Assembly (NCBI GenBank): GCA_035476575.1
Contig: DATILL010000150.1
Location: forward strand, 5,139-69,138
Length of the DNA stretch: 64,000 nucleotides
Source of the DNA: Mycobacteriales bacterium
GTDB lineage: Bacteria; Actinomycetota; Actinomycetes; Mycobacteriales; JACQDL01
Direction: 5' to 3'
Below, piece after piece: positions 12,916-49,521 of this stretch; the stretch's first letter is position 1; every line of letters starts with the position of its first letter. A program made the position numbers and the translations under genes. The notes beneath the pieces were generated by a model. It was not told the DNA's origin. It saw only the letters and a list, made by a program, of their open reading frames with translations, and did not search any database.

Positions 12916-13574
12916 TCGCCGGCTCGGGTGCGGGCGGCGGCGAGTTCATGCTCGGCGGTCACCTCACCGGTACAGGCCGCACCCAGGAGGGCGTAGGCCA
13001 GGTCCGGGCCGCCGAGGGCATCGGTCAGCCACCACGCCGCCATCACCACCGCGACGCGAGCGACCACTGACAGGGCCTGTTCGCGTTCGGTCATGATCCG
13101 AAGCGCCGCCAACCGCTGAGGAGCCGGCACCCGACGAACACCGCGCGGCTCACGGACGGCGCTGCACGACAAGCTCGGCGAGGCGCTGTACCTCGTCCAG
13201 CAGATCGACCGGTCCGCGGACTGACGCTCGGCAGCCGGCCAGCACGGCCGGCCCGCGTGACGCTGGGTCGTCGACATCGAGGTGGATGTCGAGGTACGAG
13301 TAGCGCTGGCCGATCGCCCGACCAGCGCACCGTCGGCCCGGCCCGTCATGTCGGTCCATGTGACCCTGCGACAGGCCGTGTTGGCTCGCATGTCGCCGAG
13401 CCAAATGGGGGTCGGTCTGGCACTAATAAATGATCACCGGGGCTGAAGGCGCGACGGTCTCCGGGGTGAACTCGACGAAGTACTTGCCGGCGGGTGAACA
13501 GGTTGGCGCCGTCGGCCTGGGTGAGGAACCCCTCCAGCGGCGGGCGTGGCGCACACCCGCTTCAACCTGTGCTG

Positions 13575-13937
13575 GCAAGGCGGTCAGTGCTACCTCGAAG
13601 TTCACTCGTCAGACCGAAACTTCGCTGGCTCTGGTCGCGTCGCGCCCGCCTGCGCGCCCATCTGGAGCAGTGCACCGCCCGCGCCCAGGCCCTCAGCATC
13701 AAGCTCAGTCCGGACGCCTTCGTCTTCTCACCCGCACCGGACGGCACCGAGCCGACGAAGCTCGACACCGTCACCCAGAAGTACGCCAGGATGGCCGCTA
13801 AGCTCGGCATCGACACCCATCTGCACAACCTGCGCCACTACTCCGCCACCGAGCTGATCGCCGCCGGTGTCGACATCCGCACCGTCGCCGGCCGCCTCGG
13901 CCACGGCGGCGGTGGAGCCACCACCCTCCGCGTATAC
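13575..13937 (+). pseudogene. tyrosine recombinase/integrase, C-terminal fragment cut by IS insertion
   Basis: ..DAFVFSPAPDGTEPTKLDTVTQKYARMAAKLGIDTHLHNLRHYSATELIAAGVDIRTVAGRLGHGGGGATTLRVY, then the IS inverted repeat. The N-terminal domains are absent and there is a frame change near 13630. Confidence 0.65.
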
Positions 13938-15353
13938 GGGCTCTTCGCATCTGGCTGGGTAGTGTGTTCAGGCTGCTACTGGTTGTGAGGTGGTGGTTGT
14001 GACGGTGTGTAGCCGTTCGGGGCGGGTGGAGCGGGAGGCGGTGTAGTGGGAGCGGCGTTGCTGGTTGGTGACGTCGGTCAGGCCGAAGGCTGTTCTGTAG
14101 ACGGGCTTGATGAGGTGGTTGACGCCCTCTGCGGCGGTGTTGCTGTGTCCGGTGAGCACGGCGCGGGCGGTCTCGGCGCGCCGGGTGGAGACGGTCTCGG
14201 CGAGGGTCTGGATCTCCGGGACGGTGGCGCCGGTGGTGGCGGCGAAGTCGAAGAACGTCTCCAGCGCCGTGGTGACCTGCTCGCGGGTGGCAGCGAGGCC
14301 GGTGCGGTTGGGGGAGAGTTTGGCCTGGTCGCGGAGTGGTTCCTTGGCGCGCCAGGCGGCGCCGGTCTGCTGGCCGTCTTCGCCGAGGTCGGCCAGCGCG
14401 CACAGCAGCTTGTGCCGGGCGGTGGTGGACAGCCGCTCCTGGCCGCGGCGGAGCAGGTTCTTGATGGTGTGCTCCAGGTCACCGGCCCGTTCGCGGCGGG
14501 GGTAGGTGAGGCGGCGGCGCACGTCACCGACGGTCTTGTTGGCCAGCTGCGCCAGGTGGAACGGATCGACGACCAGCCGCGCGTTGGGCAGCAGGCCGCT
14601 GCCGAGGACGGCGGACTTGTACACCGTGGACATGTCGATGCTCACCCAGCGGATGCCGGCCCGCCAGGCCGGGTCGGTCCCGGCCAGCCAGCCGGTCACG
14701 CCGGCCTTGGCCCGGCCCTGGACCTGGCCGAGCAGCCCGTGCCCGCCCGCGGGGCCGACGAGCACACTCTGCCAGCGGTCGGCGTCGGCCACCCACGCCC
14801 CGCTGGCCGCATCGCGGTGGTACAACGGCTTGCCACCTCGATGGTCGCCGGTCCCGAGCACCTCCACCGGCGGCAGCAGCCCGCTCACCGATCGGCGGAC
14901 TCGGGTGGCCGGGCCAGCCTCGGCAGGACAGGCGCCCCCGCAGGCCTCGGTCCGGGCGCCGCTGTCGGTCTCGGCGTCGCCGTCGCTGTCGGTCTGGGCG
15001 TCGGCCGTGGTGTCGGTGAGGTGGATGCCCGCCTCGGCGGCCACCCCGGACACCACGCCTGCTGACCGGATGCGGTCCTCACGTGCACCGTCCAAGACCC
15101 GTCAACCTCCCGTTCCACGACCTCGACCTCGACTCCGCTCAGCCCCAGCAGCTCGGCCAGTGCAGCACCCTGCGACACGCGCCCGCCCGCCCATCCGCCC
15201 GATGATCCTTGATCTTGTCGGACGAAGATCATCCTGGATGGGTGGGCGCGTTCCTGTCCGACACGCCAACACGACACCAACCACAGACCATGACAACCGG
15301 CGATCACTACAAGGGTGCGACCGATTACAGAATCCAGCTCACTGCGTAGAGCC
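13938..15353. mobile_element. ISL3-family insertion sequence (about 1.4 kb), probably defective
   Basis: Imperfect terminal inverted repeats, about 22/34 matched: GGCTCTTCGCATCTGGCTGG.. at 13938, and the reverse complement of 15353 is GGCTCTACGCAGTGAGCTGG.. No matching 8-bp target duplication (CGTATACG vs ATCAGGCG). Confidence 0.7.
13968..15095 (-). CDS. ISL3-family transposase (likely N-terminally disrupted)
   Basis: 375-aa ORF: ..GLLGQVQGRAKAGVTGWLAGTDPAWRAGIRWVSIDMSTVYKSAV..VVDPFHLAQLANK..NTAAEGVNHLIK. The expected N-terminal piece (LLGLSGVEVEVVEREVDGSWTVHVRT) lies in another frame at 15096-15250. Confidence 0.75.
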   Translation of the reverse strand: MDGAREDRIRSAGVVSGVAAEAGIHLTDTTADAQTDSDGDAETDSGARTEACGGACPAEAGPATRVRRSVSGLLPPVEVLGTGDHRGGKPLYHRDAASGAWVADADRWQSVLVGPAGGHGLLGQVQGRAKAGVTGWLAGTDPAWRAGIRWVSIDMSTVYKSAVLGSGLLPNARLVVDPFHLAQLANKTVGDVRRRLTYPRRERAGDLEHTIKNLLRRGQERLSTTARHKLLCALADLGEDGQQTGAAWRAKEPLRDQAKLSPNRTGLAATREQVTTALETFFDFAATTGATVPEIQTLAETVSTRRAETARAVLTGHSNTAAEGVNHLIKPVYRTAFGLTDVTNQQRRSHYTASRSTRPERLHTVTTTTSQPVAA

Positions 15354-40487: not shown

Positions 40488-40646
40488 GACCGGGACCGTC
40501 CTTCCAGGTGGTAGTCCGTGCTGGCTGTCCGGGACAGAACCGTCGCCGGCCGCGACGCCCGACGATCCGGATCCCGCCCACGTTTCCGGGCAACACTCAC
40601 GCCCCCGCGCACCTTCCATCCGGGTCGCCTGACAGGATGCGAGGTG

Positions 40647-42809
40647 ATGGACGACGCTGCCTCCGACCTCCGTGCGACCGACGGCCAGCCCGATCTGGCG
40701 GCTGGCCCGGCCCGCGGCATCCTGGCCGGCCTCGACCCAGAGCAGGCCGAGGCGGTGCGCGCGGTGCGCGGCCCGGTCTGCATCCTGGCCGGCGCCGGCA
40801 CCGGAAAGACCCGCACCATCACGCACCGGATCGCCTACGCCGTCCACACTGGCGCGGCGGCTGCGTCCCAGCTCCTCGCGGTCACCTTCACCGCCCGGGC
40901 CGCCGGGGAGATGCGCGGCCGGCTGCGCGCGCTCGGCGTCGGGGGGGTGCAGGCGCGCACGTTCCACGCCGCGGCGCTGCGGCAGCTCCGGTACTTCGCG
41001 CCCCGGGTGCTCGGCGGCCCGATGCCGGAGCTGGCCGAGCACAAGTTCCGGCTGGTGACCACGGCCGCGCTGCGCTGCCGCCTGACTGTGGACGGCACGC
41101 TCCGGCGGGACCTGTCCGGCGAGATCGAATGGGCCAAGTCCAGCCTGGTCGGGCCGGAGCAGTACGCCGAGGTGGTCACCAAGCTGGGCCGGCAGCCGCC
41201 GCTGGACGCCGCGACGGTGGCCGCGGTCTTCGCGGCGTACGAGCAGGTCAAGCAGCAGGCCGGCGTGCTGGACTTCGAGGACCTGCTGCTGGTGACCGCG
41301 GTGGCCATCGAGAACCACCGCGACGTCGCCGAGGAGGTCCGGGCGCGCTACCGGCAGTTCGTGGTGGACGAGTACCAGGACGTCAACCCGCTGCAGCAGC
41401 GGCTGCTCGACGCGTGGCTCGGCGGGCGCGAGGACCTGTGCGTGGTCGGCGACGCCAACCAGACGATCTACTCCTTCACCGGCGCCACCCCGGACTACCT
41501 GCTCGGCTTCGGCCGCCGCTACCCCGGTGCGGTGGTGGTGCGGCTGGAGCGCGACTACCGGTCCACCCCGCAGGTGGTGTCCGCGGCCAACCGGCTGATC
41601 GCGGCCACCCATGGACCGGCCGGTGGAGCCCGGCTGCGGCTGGTCGGGCAACGGCCGGACGGGCCGGAGCCGACGTTGCGCGAGTACGACGACGAGCCGG
41701 CCGAGGCCGCCGGGGTGGCCGCTGAGTGTGCCCGGCTGGTCGCGGCCGGCACCCCGGCCGCCGAGATCGCGGTGCTGTACCGGGTCAACGCGCAGTCCGA
41801 AAGCTACGAGACGGCGCTGTCCGCGGCCGGCGTGCCGTACGTGCTGCGCGGGGGCGAGCGGTTCTTCGAGCGGGCCGAGGTCCGCGAGGCCCGGGTGCTG
41901 CTGCGTGCGGCGGCCCGGTCGGCCGACCCCGAGGTTCCGCTGGTCCGGGCGGTCACCGACGTGCTGTCCGCCGCCGGCTGGTCGCCGGGGGACCCGCCGG
42001 CCGGTGGCGCCGCTCGGGAGCGGTGGGAGTCGCTGGCAGCCCTGGTCGCGCTGGCCGAGGAGGTCGCCGCCCAGCCGGCCGGTGGGGGTGACCGGCCGGG
42101 CCCGCCCGGGCTGGAGGATCTCGTGGCCGAGCTGGAGCAGCGTGCCGCGGCCCAGCACGCGCCGACCGTGCAGGGGGTCACGCTCGCCTCGCTGCACGCC
42201 GCCAAGGGGCTGGAGTGGGACGCGGTGTTCCTCGTCGGGTTGACCGAGGGCACGCTGCCGATCCAGCACGCCAGCACCGACGAGCAGGTCGAGGAGGAAC
42301 GCCGGCTGTTGTACGTCGGGATCACCCGGGCGCGGGAGCGGCTGGCGTTGTCCTGGGCGCTGGCCCGAACGCCGGGCGCGCGCCGGGGCCGGCGCAAGAG
42401 CCGGTTCCTCTACCCGCTGCTGCCGCCGGTCCTTCCGGCTGGCCGGGCCGGCGGCGGGGCCGCTGGTGGGAGTGCCGGTGCCGGTGCTGTTCGCGGTGGC
42501 AAGGCTGTCTGCGTCGAGTGCGGTGGGCCGCTGCGCAAGGGCGTCGAGCGCGCGCTGGAGCGCTGTGCCGGCTGCCCGGGCAAGGTCGACGTCGCGTTGT
42601 TCGAGCGGCTGCGTGCCTGGCGCTCGGAGCGGGCCAGCACGGCCAGCGTGCCGGCCTACGTCGTGTTCACCGACGCCACCCTGGTCGCGATCGCCGAGAC
42701 CCGGCCGGTCGACGTCGCGGGCCTGGTCCGGCTGCCCGGCATCGGGCCGCGCAAGCTCGACCTGTACGGCGCCGACGTGCTGGCGATCGTCGCGGGCCAG
42801 GCGCTGTAG
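40647..42809 (+). CDS. uvrD2: ATP-dependent DNA helicase UvrD2 type (with Cys4 module and HRDC-like tail)
   Basis: LAGAGTGKTRTITHRIAY, VVDEYQDVNP, CVECGGPL..CAGCPG, and a C-terminal VVFTDATLVAIAE..LPGIGPRKLDLYG. The start is ATG 40647 (or GTG 40644). Confidence 0.9.
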   Translation: MDDAASDLRATDGQPDLAAGPARGILAGLDPEQAEAVRAVRGPVCILAGAGTGKTRTITHRIAYAVHTGAAAASQLLAVTFTARAAGEMRGRLRALGVGGVQARTFHAAALRQLRYFAPRVLGGPMPELAEHKFRLVTTAALRCRLTVDGTLRRDLSGEIEWAKSSLVGPEQYAEVVTKLGRQPPLDAATVAAVFAAYEQVKQQAGVLDFEDLLLVTAVAIENHRDVAEEVRARYRQFVVDEYQDVNPLQQRLLDAWLGGREDLCVVGDANQTIYSFTGATPDYLLGFGRRYPGAVVVRLERDYRSTPQVVSAANRLIAATHGPAGGARLRLVGQRPDGPEPTLREYDDEPAEAAGVAAECARLVAAGTPAAEIAVLYRVNAQSESYETALSAAGVPYVLRGGERFFERAEVREARVLLRAAARSADPEVPLVRAVTDVLSAAGWSPGDPPAGGAARERWESLAALVALAEEVAAQPAGGGDRPGPPGLEDLVAELEQRAAAQHAPTVQGVTLASLHAAKGLEWDAVFLVGLTEGTLPIQHASTDEQVEEERRLLYVGITRARERLALSWALARTPGARRGRRKSRFLYPLLPPVLPAGRAGGGAAGGSAGAGAVRGGKAVCVECGGPLRKGVERALERCAGCPGKVDVALFERLRAWRSERASTASVPAYVVFTDATLVAIAETRPVDVAGLVRLPGIGPRKLDLYGADVLAIVAGQAL

Positions 42810-43388: not shown

Positions 43389-43438
43389 CCCGATCTGTCT
43401 ACCACGACTAGCCGACGAAACACCCGGAGGTGAACACG

Positions 43439-43750
43439 GTGACCCTCGCACCCGAGGTGACCGATTGCTCCTTCGAGGTCACGACCCTCGACTTCGTCGA
43501 GGCGGAGACCCGAGGCTGGGCCCTGCCCTGCCGGGTTTACGACCCCGAACTGTGGTTCGCGGAGCGCCCCGCGGACCTGGAGCTGGCAAAAAGCTACTGC
43601 CTGGACTGCCCAGTGCGGGCGGCGTGCCTCGCTGGCGCGCTGTCCCGGCGCGAGCCCTGGGGCGTCTGGGGCGGCGAGATCTTCGAGCGTGGCGTCGTGA
43701 TCCCGCGCAAGCGGCCTCGCGGCCGGCCACGCAAGGAGGTAGCCGCATGA
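43439..43750 (+). CDS. whiB7: WhiB7-type transcriptional regulator (WhiB-like Fe-S protein with AT-hook)
   Basis: 103 aa from GTG 43439 (GGAGG 8 nt upstream): LPCRVYDPELWF..AKSYCLDCPVRAACL..EPWGVWGGE..RKRPRGRPRK. Confidence 0.9.
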   Translation: MTLAPEVTDCSFEVTTLDFVEAETRGWALPCRVYDPELWFAERPADLELAKSYCLDCPVRAACLAGALSRREPWGVWGGEIFERGVVIPRKRPRGRPRKEVAA

Positions 43751-45511: not shown

Positions 45512-46648
45512 TCATCCGGCCCGCCGGTCGGTGCCGGGCAGGCCCGCGCCCGTTCGGCCAGCCTGCCCGCCCGGGCGCTGGCGAGCGGCGTTGGGCCGGC
45601 CGGCGCCACAGTCGCAGTGCGGGTGGGCTGGCCAGGTGCGCCGCCGGACCCGCCAGTCGGGCAGCCGTAGCTCCAGCGTGCCGTGCAACGTGGCCGGCTC
45701 GCCGCCGTCCAGCAGGGTCAGCGCCTGGAGGACGGCCAGCGACGCGGCGAAGATCGCCAGCGTCACGTCACACGGCTCGGTCTGCCGGCGCCGCCGGATG
45801 GAGAGCTGGGCGGCCAGCACCGGCCAGGCCGGGTCGCGGTCGCGGCGCTGCAGGTCCGCACAGGTCAGGCAGCTCGACAGGCCGGGCAGCACGAGCGGCC
45901 CGACCACAGCCGTCGACTCCCGGATCGACACCGGCAGGTGCGGCGCGCCGATCCGGTGCAGCCCGGCCCGGACCTGGGGCTCGACCGGGTCCATCCCGGT
46001 CAGCACCACCAGGTCGGGCACCTCGCGCGGCCGGATCGGCCCCACCTCGGTCTCCGGCGCGGCCCGGCGGACCGCGGCCATCGCCGCGGCCAGCCGGGGC
46101 GTGAAGGCGTCGGACGGCGCCAGCCCGCCCGGCGCGGCGTCGCACGGCCGGGCCATCTCCCGGTCGATCACCCGGACCCGTCCGACCCCGGCGGCACCGA
46201 GCAACGTCGCCACCGGCGCACCGAGCCGCCCGGCGCCGTGCACCGCCACGGTTGCGTCCCGGCGCCGCAGCAGCGTGCTGATCGGCGCGCGGGCCGGGCT
46301 GGCCAGGGACAGCCCGGCCCGGTCCGGCTCCAGCCGCTCGGCGGTGTCCGGCCGGCCCAGCGCGGTCAGCCCGACCGGCTCGCCGTCCACCACCAGGCCG
46401 CACTGCCGCAGCCCGCGGACCAGCCTGGTGACCGTCTCCCGGTCAGCCCCGATCGCGGCGGCGTCGGCCAGCACCTCCGCCTCCGACCGGCTGCCGTCCA
46501 GCCCGACCAGCACCCGGGCGGTGGTCTGGTCGATGCCGTCGACGACGATCCCGCGGGCCGCGTCGAGGCCGAGCTGGAGCGTCCGCTGGTCCCGCCAGAG
46601 CGGACGCAGGCCGGTGAGCAGTTGCGGACACGGTTCGGACACGGGCAC
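45512..46648 (-). CDS. ThiF/E1-like family protein (function unknown)
   Basis: 378 aa: VAVHGAGRLGAPVATLLGAAGVGRVRVID, a Rossmann-like segment, and a CxxC pair (SSCLTCAD). Weak family call. Confidence 0.55.
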   Translation of the reverse strand: MPVSEPCPQLLTGLRPLWRDQRTLQLGLDAARGIVVDGIDQTTARVLVGLDGSRSEAEVLADAAAIGADRETVTRLVRGLRQCGLVVDGEPVGLTALGRPDTAERLEPDRAGLSLASPARAPISTLLRRRDATVAVHGAGRLGAPVATLLGAAGVGRVRVIDREMARPCDAAPGGLAPSDAFTPRLAAAMAAVRRAAPETEVGPIRPREVPDLVVLTGMDPVEPQVRAGLHRIGAPHLPVSIRESTAVVGPLVLPGLSSCLTCADLQRRDRDPAWPVLAAQLSIRRRRQTEPCDVTLAIFAASLAVLQALTLLDGGEPATLHGTLELRLPDWRVRRRTWPAHPHCDCGAGRPNAARQRPGGQAGRTGAGLPGTDRRAG

Positions 46649-46713
46649 CTCGCCTTGCCGTACGGAATGTGGTTGCCGGCAGCCTGGCAGGTTGAGCCGA
46701 CTGGCCGCTGCCG

Positions 46714-46741
46714 TTGTCCACAGGCTGGCGGGTTGTCCACA
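46714..46741 (+). promoter_or_regulatory. two perfect actinobacterial DnaA-box 9-mers (TTGTCCACA) in direct orientation
   Basis: TTGTCCACAGGC at 46714 and 46733, 66-93 nt upstream of the ThiF-like start (46648). Confidence 0.45.
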
Positions 46742-46797
46742 GGCGATGAGCGCGCCTTGCCTTCGCGGGGTTGGATCCGCTATCCGGCAGGCATGCC

Positions 46798-46832
46798 CAA
46801 GGGCGGCCCCGACCCTCTCGGGACCGCCCTTG
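46798..46832 (-). terminator. hairpin downstream of the DUF5679 gene
   Basis: CAAGGGCGGCCCCGA-CCCTC-TCGGGACCGCCCTTG, a 15-bp stem with one mismatch. Confidence 0.4.
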
Positions 46833-46866
46833 CGCGGTCGTGCGTGCGGCGGACCTCAGGCGACGT

Positions 46867-47019
46867 TCAAGCCTTGCCGAGGATCCTGTTCATCTTGGTG
46901 CCACACACCGGACACGAGCCCTTGGCCATGCGGCGCCCGGAGTCGCTGGTGAAGACCTCGCCCTCGAAGTCGCGCTTCTCCTTGCACTTCACGCAGTAGC
47001 CGTTGTAGGTCTCGGCCAC
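46867..47019 (-). CDS. DUF5679-type small zinc-ribbon protein
   Basis: 50 aa from GTG 47019 (AGGAGG upstream): VAETYNGYCVKCKEKRDFEGEVFTSDSGRRMAKGSCPVCGTKMNRILGKA. Confidence 0.75.
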   Translation of the reverse strand: MAETYNGYCVKCKEKRDFEGEVFTSDSGRRMAKGSCPVCGTKMNRILGKA

Positions 47020-47205
47020 GTCGCCTCCTAGCTTCTTCCATCGTGTCCCGCGCCGCGTTCCGGCAGCCGGGACGGTCCGGCACACGGTACTCGCCCGTTC
47101 CAGGCGGGCCTGCGTAACCCGGCGCGGACGCACCCAGGCCTACCAGGGCGTGCTCAGGGCGGGACCGGCCCGCTCGATGTCGGGATCGGCGGTAGCCTCC
47201 GCGAC

Positions 47206-47991
47206 ATGCGGCCGCTGCTGATCGACCGGCATGACGACGGCGTTGTCGTGCTCACCCTTAACCTGCCGGACCGGCGCAACGCGATGACCGCGGACCTCAC
47301 CGCGGCCTGGGCCGAGACTGTGCCGGCGCTGGCGGCCGACCGCTCGGTCCGCTGCGTGCTGCTCACCGCGGCGGGTACGGCGTTCTGCGCCGGCGGCGAC
47401 CTGTCCTGGCTGGAGCGGGGGGACACCCGGTCCGTCGACGACCTGCGCGCCCGGATGCTGCCCTTCTACCGCACCTGGCTGGCCATTCGGGAGGTGGAGG
47501 CGCCGACCATCGCGGTCGTCCAGGGGCCCGCGGTGGGCGCCGGGCTGGCCCTCGCGCTCGCCTGCGACCTGCGCTACGCCGCGCCGGACGCCGCGCTGTC
47601 GATGCCGTTCACCGCGCTCGGCATCCACCCGGGCATGGCGAGCACCTGGCTGCTGCCTGAGGTGGCGGGGTTGCCGGTGGCCCGCGAGCTGCTGCTGACC
47701 GGGCGGGTGGTCACCGGTGCCGAGGCGGTCGGCCTGGGCCTGGTCAACCGGGTCTTCCCGGCCGGCACGCTGGCCGCCGAGGCGCTGGCGATCGCCCGCC
47801 AGGTCGCGTCCCGGGCGCCGGTGCCGACCCGGCTGACCAAGGTGGCGCTGGCCGGCGGTGGACCCGCGACGTTCGAGGCGGCGCTGGCGTGGGAGGCGGT
47901 CGCCCAGCCGGTGACGCTGGCCGGTGCGGACCTGGCCGAGGGGCTGCGGGCGGCCCGCGAACGCCGGCCGCCGCGGTTCACTGGCCGCTGA
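47206..47991 (+). CDS. enoyl-CoA hydratase/isomerase family protein
   Basis: 261 aa: VVVLTLNLPDRRNAMT..AFCAGGDLS..AVVQGPAVGAGLALALACDLRYA. Confidence 0.85.
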   Translation: MRPLLIDRHDDGVVVLTLNLPDRRNAMTADLTAAWAETVPALAADRSVRCVLLTAAGTAFCAGGDLSWLERGDTRSVDDLRARMLPFYRTWLAIREVEAPTIAVVQGPAVGAGLALALACDLRYAAPDAALSMPFTALGIHPGMASTWLLPEVAGLPVARELLLTGRVVTGAEAVGLGLVNRVFPAGTLAAEALAIARQVASRAPVPTRLTKVALAGGGPATFEAALAWEAVAQPVTLAGADLAEGLRAARERRPPRFTGR

Positions 47992-48179
47992 CCGGGCAGC
48001 ACGCCGTCCTGGTGAGAACCGTGGCGAGCTGGGTTCAGAACCCTATGGAGCCCGGACGCACGTAGCCCCCGAACCATTGGGCACGCCGCCCGCCTTCCCC
48101 TAACGAACGGTGCGCCCGCAGCTTCGGGGGCTGCGTCGCCTCAGACGGTATGGCGACCGGCAGGCCGGGTCAACGTTGG

Positions 48180-48333
48180 TTGCCCACAGGCTGTGGATAA
48201 CCCTGTGGACCAGGGTGTTGACGAGCCGGTGTGTCGCTGTGGACAGCCCAGAGACGGCCTGTGGACGCCCAGTGTTCACCGTAGTAGTCCACCCGGGTGA
48301 CGTGCGCGAATGTTGTGCACCGGGTGTGGACAG
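48180..48333. promoter_or_regulatory. cluster of DnaA-box-like 9-mers in a non-coding, AT-richer gap
   Basis: TTGCCCACA 48180(+). Reverse-orientation boxes: TGTGGATAA 48192, TGTGGACCA 48204, TGTGGACAG 48238, TGTGGACGC 48260, TGTGGACAG 48325. A weaker TAGTCCACC at 48285(+). Confidence 0.5.
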
Positions 48334-48367
48334 AAAAAATTGGCGGATTCTCGGCTAGCGTGCCCTC

Positions 48368-48922
48368 GTGGGCATCATGCCTCCGGACGACCCGGTCGAG
48401 GTTCGTCGCAGCTCGCGGCGGCGCCGGACCGTGTCAGCGTATCGGGACGGTGACCGTGTTGTCGTGCTTATCCCGGCCCGGTTCAGCAAGGCCGAGGAGC
48501 GTCGCTGGGTCGCCGAGATGGTGGCCCGGCTCAAGGCCAGGGACGCCCGGCGCAGCAACGGCCCGCGGGCCAGCGACATCGCCCTGCTCGGCCGGGCGCG
48601 CCAGCTCTCTGGGCAGTACCTCGGCGGCCGGGCGGATCCTGACAGCGTCCGCTGGGTCGGCAACATGAGCACCCGGTGGGGGTCGTGTACGCCGATGGAC
48701 CGCACCATCCGGGTGTCCAGCCGGCTGCGCGACATGCCGGGCTGGGTGCTCGACTACGTGCTGGTGCACGAGCTCGCGCACCTGCAGGTGCCCGGCCACG
48801 GCCCGGACTTCTGGGAGCTGGTCGGGCGCTATCCGCGCACCGAGCGGGCCCGTGGCTACCTGGAGGGGGTGGCTGCCGCCGCCCAGCTTGACCTCACCGA
48901 GGACGACGTGATCGAGGCGTGA
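48368..48922 (+). CDS. DUF45/YgjP-like metal-dependent hydrolase (HExxH)
   Basis: 184 aa: ..RWGSCTPMDRTIRVSSRL..VLDYVLVHELAHLQVPGHGPDFW. Confidence 0.8.
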   Translation: MGIMPPDDPVEVRRSSRRRRTVSAYRDGDRVVVLIPARFSKAEERRWVAEMVARLKARDARRSNGPRASDIALLGRARQLSGQYLGGRADPDSVRWVGNMSTRWGSCTPMDRTIRVSSRLRDMPGWVLDYVLVHELAHLQVPGHGPDFWELVGRYPRTERARGYLEGVAAAAQLDLTEDDVIEA

Positions 48923-49521
48923 GGGCCGCCGTACTGCTGCTGACGGGGGCGCCTGGGCACCCGGCCTGTCCGCCGGGCGTGGACCAGGTCCGGTTCGGCC
49001 GCGCGCTGGCTGAGGACGTCGTCGACCTGCTGGCCACACTGTCCGATGTGGATACCCTGATCGCGGCGACGCCGTCCCGGCTGGACGACGTGGCAGCCAT
49101 CCGCTGGCCGGGCACGGTGGTGCTGCGGCTGTCCGAGGTGGATGGTGTGGTGTCGCTGCTCGGCCGGATCGCGGGCTACGACGAGGCCGCGGTCTTCGCG
49201 CCGGACGTACCGGACCTGCCCGCGCTGCTAGCGGCCAAGCCGTTCAGCGGACTGTCGACAGCGGAGGTCGCGGTGCTGCCGGCCAGCACCGGCGGTCTGG
49301 TGGCGCTGGCCAGCCGGCTGCCGGTGCCGGGCTGGCTGCCGTCCACCGTGGACCTCGACGACCCGGCCGCGCTGGATCGGTTACGGGCTGCCGCCCCCAG
49401 GCCGGACGACGTGGTGGTCGCGCCGGCCTGGCCCCGGCTGCGCACCCCGACCGACCTGGTCCGGCTGGATCCGGCGCTGGAGGGCTGGGAGGCCACCCGC
49501 GCCCTGGTGTCCGACAGCTAG
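48919..49521 (+). CDS. hypothetical protein (family not recognised with confidence)
   Basis: 200 aa. GTGA overlap with the upstream gene and high-GC third positions. The stop abuts the locus C palindrome. Confidence 0.5.
   Translation: MRAAVLLLTGAPGHPACPPGVDQVRFGRALAEDVVDLLATLSDVDTLIAATPSRLDDVAAIRWPGTVVLRLSEVDGVVSLLGRIAGYDEAAVFAPDVPDLPALLAAKPFSGLSTAEVAVLPASTGGLVALASRLPVPGWLPSTVDLDDPAALDRLRAAAPRPDDVVVAPAWPRLRTPTDLVRLDPALEGWEATRALVSDS

Follow-up and report, generated by a model that had tools for sequence, protein, structure and literature searches.

A conserved array of DnaA-box-like sites in the spacer between a predicted small RNA promoter and a DUF45 metallopeptidase gene of actinomycetes

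What might a dense cluster of DnaA-box-like sites be doing in a chromosomal neighbourhood that holds neither dnaA nor dnaN? The question is raised by a 64,000-nucleotide stretch of DNA from a Mycobacteriales bacterium (contig DATILL010000150.1), the whole of which is called here the window and which is high-G+C actinobacterial DNA (~72% G+C). A sequence-only reading of the window had pointed to such a cluster between positions 48180 and 48333, and had compared it with the DnaA-titrating and DnaA-reactivating loci of Escherichia coli, datA and DARS. The cluster is real, non-random and conserved, and judged by its sequence it is best classed with a known kind of element, the extra-origin DnaA-box cluster. 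Its unusual part is a fixed architecture that is physically coupled to the gene of an undescribed small RNA. We favour, with a confidence somewhat above even, the reading that the array occupies the spacer between two divergent promoters and would act in DnaA-dependent transcription control, titration of DnaA being a side effect.

The sites of the array, together with one further conserved motif, are the following.

48180–48188, plus strand: DnaA-box-like TTGCCCACA, 8 of 9 positions; opposed to the 48192 box across a 3-bp gap; position-weight matrix (PWM) score 13.3
48192–48200, minus strand: DnaA box TTATCCACA (plus-strand letters TGTGGATAA), exact consensus of the E. coli type; best site of the array, PWM score 15.0 (matrix maximum 15.2)
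48204–48212, minus strand: DnaA-box-like TGGTCCACA (plus-strand letters TGTGGACCA), 8 of 9 positions; 12 bp past the 48192 box
48216–48224, minus strand: weak site TCGTCAACA, 7 of 9 positions; 12 bp past the 48204 box; aligns with a conserved TGGGGAC of relatives
48238–48246, minus strand: DnaA-box-like CTGTCCACA (plus-strand letters TGTGGACAG), 8 of 9 positions; PWM score 14.2; preceded by a conserved GTGTCGC
48260–48268, minus strand: DnaA-box-like GCGTCCACA (plus-strand letters TGTGGACGC), 7 of 9 positions; 22 bp past the 48238 box
48285, plus strand: weak box TAGTCCACC, not conserved in the wider family
48298–48306, strand not assigned: motif TGACGTGCG (TGACCTGCG in most relatives), TGAC[C/G]TGCG, conserved within the array
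48313–48321, plus strand: weak box TTGTGCACC, 7 of 9 positions; opposed to the 48325 box across a 3-bp gap; relatives have tCCACCggcTGTGGA there
48325–48333, minus strand: DnaA-box-like CTGTCCACA (plus-strand letters TGTGGACAG), 8 of 9 positions; PWM score 14.2; 65 bp past the 48260 box

Every 9-mer named in the sequence-only reading is present where it had been placed, including the exact E. coli-type box at 48192 (TTATCCACA on the minus strand), and to these can be added the weak boxes at 48216 and 48313 and a perfect pair at 46714/46733. The claim of a density above chance also holds. Twelve sites in the whole window differ at no more than one position from TTGTCCACA, to which DnaA of Mycobacterium tuberculosis and Streptomyces coelicolor binds with high affinity (PMC4285127), with 5.3 expected; five of them fall within the 154 bp of 48180–48333, two are the perfect boxes at 46714/46733 and the other five are scattered singles, as by chance. 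In 100 dinucleotide-preserving shuffles of the window, 160 bp never held more than two such sites. If two mismatches are allowed, the same 154 bp contain nine sites, the additional ones being those at 48216, 48260, 48285 and 48313. The interval 48180–48340 is AT-richer than its surroundings (60% G+C against ~72% for the window), an A6 run follows at 48334–48339 and the cluster lies just upstream of a DUF45 gene that starts at 48368, all as had been described. The size of the gap needs correction: it is not 260 bp but 376 bp, from the stop of an enoyl-CoA hydratase gene at 47991 to the DUF45 start, and ~85 nt of it are taken up by a conserved hairpin RNA gene.

The sites were scored with the DnaA matrix of Hicks et al. 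2020 (Table S10), which derives from biochemically defined M. tuberculosis boxes (PMC7738170). The top 200-bp cluster of the window is then 48132–48331, with a score of 133 and 11 sites scoring at least 10. As a positive control, the same matrix gives 171 for oriC and 129 for the rpmH-dnaA gap at the M. tuberculosis dnaA locus; DnaA binds both regions by IDAP-seq, and their Mycobacterium smegmatis counterparts by chromatin immunoprecipitation sequencing (ChIP-seq) (PMC7738170). The rpmH-dnaA gap reads CTGTCCACA tt TGTGGATAG cca TGTGGACAG, and this triad has the same opposed-then-direct topology, in steps of 11–12 bp, as the window sites 48180/48192/48204. Three tandem boxes with a period of 11–12 bp (CTATCCACAgtTTTCCACAgccTTATCCACA) are also found in a Mycobacterium sp. 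(locus L083, 7330–7440), in the gap between the Rv3843c homologue and sodA, with one inverted consensus box (cTGTGGATAAc) ~70 nt off; this gap is syntenic with the published DnaA IDAP-seq/ChIP-seq site Rv3843c-sodA. The sodA locus of M. adipatum (L084) was discarded as a comparison, being not syntenic with the Rv3843c site. The runner-up matrix cluster of the window, at ~13800, scores 89.5; it falls within an integrase-like fragment of coding sequence, has neither TGTGGA nor TCCACA cores and was rejected as spurious. The fragment itself (~13430–14000) is of lower G+C, resembles the C-terminus of a tyrosine recombinase and may be the remnant of an integrated element.

Conservation across genera had been named as a check on the cluster, and the result is clear. 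We collected 80 genome loci by means of the DUF45 protein, which is identical to a protein listed by NCBI for a Mycobacteriales metagenome-assembled genome and 73–84% identical to many actinobacterial proteins, and took 400 bp upstream of each ortholog. These upstream regions contain 89 boxes where local shuffles give 4.5 ± 2.0, with at least one box in 50 loci and at least two in 34. Two architectures can be distinguished. Class A is made up of the window together with 13 genome loci of several orders (Kribbella; Actinomadura and Streptosporangiaceae; Frankiales and Motilibacteraceae metagenome-assembled genomes; several unclassified Actinomycetota metagenome-assembled genomes), to which 20 metagenome contigs found independently are added, 34 loci in total. 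In all of them TGTGGA cores of the same orientation start at distances of 23, 35, 68, 90 and 155 nt, counted from the −35 element (a conserved GTCAA) of the small RNA promoter described below, except that in some the whole box set is displaced to 13... or 33... The internal start-to-start spacing is thus fixed at 12, 33, 22 and 65 bp, values that each come close to a whole number of helical turns, and the array moves as a whole, in steps of 10–11 bp, relative to the RNA promoter. In an alignment of 32 modules the boxes stand out as conserved islands within a variable spacer.

48191–48197: CTGTGGA, conserved in at least 90%
48203–48209: CTGtGGA, conserved
48231–48243: GTGTCGCTGTGGA, 70–99% conserved
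48260–48266: TGTGGAC, conserved
48324–48330: TGTGGA, conserved

The sites at 48180 and 48285 are not conserved in this alignment; the opposed box at 48180 matches in 10–50% of the modules and is kept in closer relatives only. The box at 48325, at least 90% conserved, directly adjoins the −35 region of the DUF45 promoter and precedes the A-tract. Class B is found in Pseudonocardiaceae such as Amycolatopsis, and consists of an inverted perfect pair, TTGTCCACA-N12-TGTGGACAA, placed ~35 bp upstream of a PafBC/RecA-NDp-like promoter, TGTCGGTG-N8-TAnnnT.

A chance cluster, or coding sequence such as an open reading frame at 48110–48358, might have explained the repeats, given that the list of open reading frames does include some that overlap the gap. 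This explanation is refuted by the shuffles, none of which came near the observed density, and by the fixed array of the 34 loci, in which the boxes are kept while the spacer varies by insertions and deletions of 10–11 nt. Because three does not divide such shifts, the spacer cannot be read as coding sequence, and we leave the explanation next to no weight.

If the array is an operator, the protein most consistent with it is DnaA. There are 154 perfect copies of TTGTCCACA or TTATCCACA across the 80 loci (934 kb), with an extended consensus AGTT[G/A]TCCACAG, and sister Amycolatopsis species exchange TTATCCACA and TTGTCCACA at the same site, i.e. A and G at position 3, a variation that DnaA tolerates. 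Direct as well as opposed repeats are present, with sites on either strand, as suits a protein that binds an asymmetric site as a monomer. Such a 9-mer, asymmetric, read in either direction and with this tolerated degeneracy, is a better match to DnaA than to a dimeric regulator. The alternative that the sites form the operator of another regulator whose site resembles a DnaA box (the response regulator MtrA, WhiA or a further factor) is improbable in our view, despite several features that speak for it. The conserved core is short (CTGTGGAyR), the 11–12 bp period of the direct repeats also suits regulators of the OmpR family, and GTGTC, the complement of the WhiA-type motif GACAC, is conserved right beside the third box. 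This third conserved box reads GTCGCTGTGGA, and its complement TCCACAGCG agrees at 7 of 9 positions with GTCACAGCG, the M. tuberculosis MtrA box (PMC4285127). The GCG flank is present on one box only, however, and perfect 9-mers with the outer TT intact are kept both in Pseudonocardiaceae and at 46714/46733. Mixed orientations and spacings misfit a dimeric or tandem-dimer regulator, and the extended consensus AGTTRTCCACAG coincides with what we take to flank the E. coli boxes R1 and R4. A contribution of MtrA or WhiA at the GTGTCGCTGTGGA box is possible, and would leave the perfect 9-mers elsewhere unexplained. GTGTCGC (48231–48237) is, besides 48298–48306, a second conserved motif within the array; it holds the complement of GACAC and, together with the adjoining box, resembles an MtrA box.

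What lies on either side of the array bears on its function. The left-hand neighbour, overlooked in the sequence-only reading, is a small RNA gene with its own predicted promoter.

48057–48140, minus strand: candidate ~85-nt hairpin small RNA with invariant apical loop GGGGAAG, read leftward, away from the array
48145–48150, minus strand: −10 element TACCGT of the RNA promoter, 6–8 nt upstream of the hairpin base
48168–48173, minus strand: −35 element TTGACC of the RNA promoter, with a 17-nt spacer to the −10 element

The hairpin shows compensatory changes in 13 of its 16 consensus pairs (12 of 16 when 34 sequences are aligned), a covariation reached by none of 500 column shuffles, and sliding the pairing partners makes the pairing collapse. 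The minus strand is indicated as the transcribed one: its fold is the more stable in 13 of 14 copies, it holds the G-U pairs, and the covariance model scores 45–87 bits on it against less than 40 on the plus strand. In metagenome contigs this model recovered a further 20 copies, each in the same place; it found no copy in loci without the array or elsewhere in the window, and no match in the mycobacterial dnaA (L081) or sodA (L082, L083) loci. Rfam gave no match at gathering scores for the window and nine loci, and only chance-level matches for 47950–48420 with E values up to 10. The minus-strand promoter is predicted, by its sequence, to be a consensus housekeeping-sigma promoter driving the hairpin RNA. 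Its −10 pattern, A...TA as read on the plus strand or TAnnnT on the minus, does not vary among 14 loci and recurs in a further 20, the GTCAA of the −35 element is at least 90% conserved and the spacer between both elements is constant at 17–18 nt; a scan of 46500–48600 for consensus promoters and terminators returned no match, and the promoters were recognised from conservation only. A role of the hairpin as terminator of the enoyl-CoA hydratase gene was rejected, since the module is present beside echA, DUF5679 or ThiF genes and has a promoter of its own. The small RNA is conserved and structured and appears to be strongly transcribed; the RNA family library lacks it, and its promoter is physically coupled to the array.

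On the right-hand side the array is followed by the DUF45 gene.

48356–48361, plus strand: −10 element TAGCGT of the DUF45 promoter, 7 nt before the GTG at 48368
48368–48922, plus strand: DUF45 / YgjP-like metallopeptidase gene with GTG start; HELAH motif, Pfam PF01863 with E = 3e-22, weak SprT-like match

A TAnnnT element is found 6–7 nt before the DUF45 start codon in those relatives that have a short spacer. The position of the −10 element, only 7 nt before the GTG, suggests a leaderless DUF45 mRNA, with a start site read from the sequence. Searches of solved structures and of NCBIfam yielded nothing further on the function of DUF45.

With both promoters placed, the possibility that the repeats act in RNA can be weighed, for instance as GGA-type protein-binding repeats carried by a long DUF45 5' leader or by a more extended non-coding RNA. 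In the 34 modules the conserved boxes do all have the same orientation, and a structured RNA adjoins them. Yet transcription from the one conserved promoter nearby is directed away from the array, downstream of which lies the DUF45 −10 element, so that the boxes are predicted to be untranscribed. Moreover, the boxes of Pseudonocardiaceae are inverted perfect 9-mers, no conserved pairing involves the boxes, and a phasing of 10–11 nt is a property of double-stranded DNA. We regard action at the RNA level as very improbable.

In the DnaA-dependent transcription control that we favour, the array would fill an untranscribed spacer with the hairpin RNA promoter on its left and the apparently leaderless DUF45 operon on its right. 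DnaA may nucleate at the best boxes (48192, 48238 and 48325) and spread cooperatively to the weaker ones, the conserved sites, with starts 12, 12, 22, 22 and 65 bp apart, being expected all on one face of the helix. The resulting complex could contact or occlude the −35 regions on both sides, and the expression of the RNA and/or the DUF45 operon would then follow the amount or the nucleotide state of DnaA, and hence the replication status. The pair at 46714/46733 may do the same for a ThiF-like gene, which would belong to the same regulon. About eight DnaA molecules would be held by the array, as an unavoidable side effect that may matter in its own right. The array thus probably links the expression of the hairpin RNA and the metallopeptidase to the replication state, and perhaps also affects the level of free DnaA. 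A precedent exists in Bacillus subtilis, where clusters of DnaA boxes outside the origin control the genes beside them, among them sda, ywlC and yydA (Ishikawa et al. 2007, PMC2533591). Like the array, those clusters are dense, intergenic and remote from the unwinding site, recur in related species, occupy promoter regions and are defined by how dense the boxes are locally and how strongly they bind; the flanking genes in B. subtilis respond to DnaA. The present array differs in phylum and flanking genes, in the helical register between its five-box spacing and a small RNA promoter, and in being known from its sequence.

Some observations weigh against DnaA-dependent control of the two promoters. 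Most of the conserved boxes match the core CTGTGGAyR, and since the outer two positions are only partly conserved a moderate affinity is predicted. The transcription start sites and the expression of the RNA are predictions, and DnaA binding at this locus, as in the other array-bearing organisms, is read from the DNA letters. No DnaA peak has been reported at whiB7-uvrD2 in M. tuberculosis or M. smegmatis, the only actinobacteria with genome-wide DnaA maps (PMC7738170), the presence of the array in mycobacteria being itself not established. Finally, the last box lies anywhere from 13 to more than 100 nt from the −10 element of DUF45, so that the case for direct control of this gene is weaker than that for control of the RNA promoter, with which the array keeps a helical register.

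The same architecture allows the array to be compared with elements that serve replication itself. The earlier statement that the cluster is not oriC stands: there is no dnaA or dnaN and no AT-rich unwinding element, the flanking genes encode an enoyl-CoA hydratase and DUF45, and the whiB7-uvrD2 neighbourhood is conserved. A secondary origin, or that of a mobile element, is hardly credible either. The dense boxes, the local G+C of 60% and the A-tract at one end would suit it; but this A-tract has only 6 nt, no AT-rich unwinding element accompanies it, no replication or mobility genes are nearby, the chromosomal gene order is conserved across orders and the GC skew does not switch at the array.

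A more serious alternative, with a modest but real chance of being right, is a dedicated replication-control locus like datA/DARS in E. coli or D78 in Streptomyces, the flanking promoters being incidental or serving local supercoiling. The box density equals that of a DnaA-bound M. tuberculosis region, the fixed and phased spacing is as expected of a defined DnaA oligomer, and further perfect-box pairs lie within a few kb. The triad 48180/48192/48204, opposed then direct and with a perfect middle box, matches the topology of the DARS core (PMC6868365; PMC10380432), and the strong small RNA promoter beside the cluster recalls the tRNA operon beside datA (PMC10950094). Against this, the opposed box at 48180 is kept in a minority of the 34 modules, the opposed gap is 2–3 bp where DARS has 5 bp, and Pseudonocardiaceae retain only two boxes upstream of DUF45. 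The same triad is found upstream of M. tuberculosis dnaA, where the accepted reading is autoregulation, and a helical register with a promoter would be needless for a pure sink. Of the resemblance to datA/DARS that had been put forward, the match to DnaA boxes, the density and the conservation are borne out; a titrating or reactivating role does not follow from them, as transcription control fits at least as well, given an array that lies between divergent promoters and in helical register with one of them.

The comparison with individual loci leads to the same picture. The cores of E. coli DARS1 and DARS2 likewise have three close boxes, I and II opposed, II with the full consensus and III in the same direction as II; the gap, however, is 3 bp here and 5 bp in DARS (PMC6868365), the opposed box is poorly conserved, and DARS was compared by description only. 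The resemblance to DARS is therefore topological only, and depends on a poorly conserved box. E. coli datA and S. coelicolor D78 are also extra-oriC box clusters that, like this array, could lower free or active DnaA. datA needs IHF and promotes ATP hydrolysis, whereas the array lies in a promoter spacer of another neighbourhood. D78 is reportedly close to oriC, according to Smulczyk-Krawczyszyn and colleagues (2006), and we know of no consensus site for the actinobacterial IHF counterpart. The mycobacterial extra-origin sites (rpmH-dnaA, Rv0010c-Rv0011c, Rv0057/dnaB and Rv3843c-MTS2975; PMC7738170) share with the array the consensus, a similar score (133 here, 129 for rpmH-dnaA), the 11–12 bp period and the opposed-then-direct triad, and one of them also adjoins a small RNA gene. 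None of them is in the whiB7-uvrD2 neighbourhood, and binding was measured there while the array is predicted from its letters.

A rather doubtful extension of these ideas, again drawn from the sequence, is that the array makes up a single unit with the strongly promoted hairpin RNA, an unrecognised actinobacterial DnaA-control module. Two versions can be envisaged. In the first, DnaA status would set the level of the small RNA, whose invariant G-rich loop GGGGAAG might pair with C-rich partners, e.g. the C-rich loops of 6C RNA or pyrimidine-rich mRNA sites, so that replication status would be broadcast post-transcriptionally. In the second, divergent transcription would drive the assembly of the DnaA oligomer or its nucleotide turnover, and the module would be a functional counterpart of datA/DARS, of which no equivalent has to our knowledge been described in Actinomycetota. 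The control of DnaA activity is poorly understood in actinomycetes, for which we know of no described counterparts of E. coli Hda, SeqA, datA and DARS. An array of fixed architecture, present in several orders and set in a neighbourhood rich in DNA-repair genes (uvrD2, whiB7), offers a concrete locus for studies of DnaA-dependent control or buffering.

Further box pairs are found in the vicinity of the array.

46714–46722, plus strand: perfect TTGTCCACA box, followed by GGC
46733–46741, plus strand: perfect TTGTCCACA box, followed by GGC, 19 bp from the first

This pair lies 66–95 nt upstream of the minus-strand ThiF-like gene, and the same pair between ThiF and DUF5679 is kept in Actinosynnema and Umezawaea loci. 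A third perfect pair (cTGTGGACAACTc, twice) directly follows the ABC1 kinase stop in Pseudonocardiaceae (L028 3290–3340, L020 3073–3100 and others), upstream of a minus-strand open reading frame that resembles an AbiEi-type antitoxin.

The DUF45 gene of Pseudonocardiaceae differs in its promoter. The sequence TGTC[G/A]GTG-N8-TAnnnT is reportedly a DNA-damage motif, described by Gamulin and colleagues in 2004; the role of the PafBC/RecA-NDp motif is set out in PMC6789036. No such motif is present upstream of DUF45 in the window or in any array locus, and a match is present upstream of DUF45 in most Pseudonocardiaceae orthologs. In L013, L016, L020, L028 and other Pseudonocardiaceae, TGTCGGTG-N8-TAnnnT is found ~15–100 nt upstream of the gene. 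The position of this motif of LexA-independent damage response before DUF45 suggests that the metallopeptidase is damage-inducible in Pseudonocardiaceae; a text search of the literature for DUF45 together with DNA damage returned only eukaryotic DUF45xx matches.

The remaining genes around the array are as follows.

40518–42809: uvrD2
43430–43750, plus strand: whiB7 ortholog with C-terminal AT-hook RGRPRK, between uvrD2 and an ABC1 kinase gene
after whiB7, minus strand: ABC1 kinase gene
45512–46648, minus strand: ThiF-like gene
46867–47022, minus strand: DUF5679 gene
47206–47991: enoyl-CoA hydratase gene
48919–49521, plus strand: open reading frame of 200 amino acids, overlapping the DUF45 stop codon, no Pfam family
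downstream of the latter: Zincin_2, epimerase, PDZ-Lon and UPF0182 genes

This gene block is kept in all 80 genome loci, and the order uvrD2-whiB7-ABC1 kinase matches the Rv3197-Rv3198c arrangement of M. tuberculosis. The 200-amino-acid open reading frame is found mainly in genome loci that have the hairpin-plus-array module and in Streptosporangiales loci, for instance in Actinomadura.

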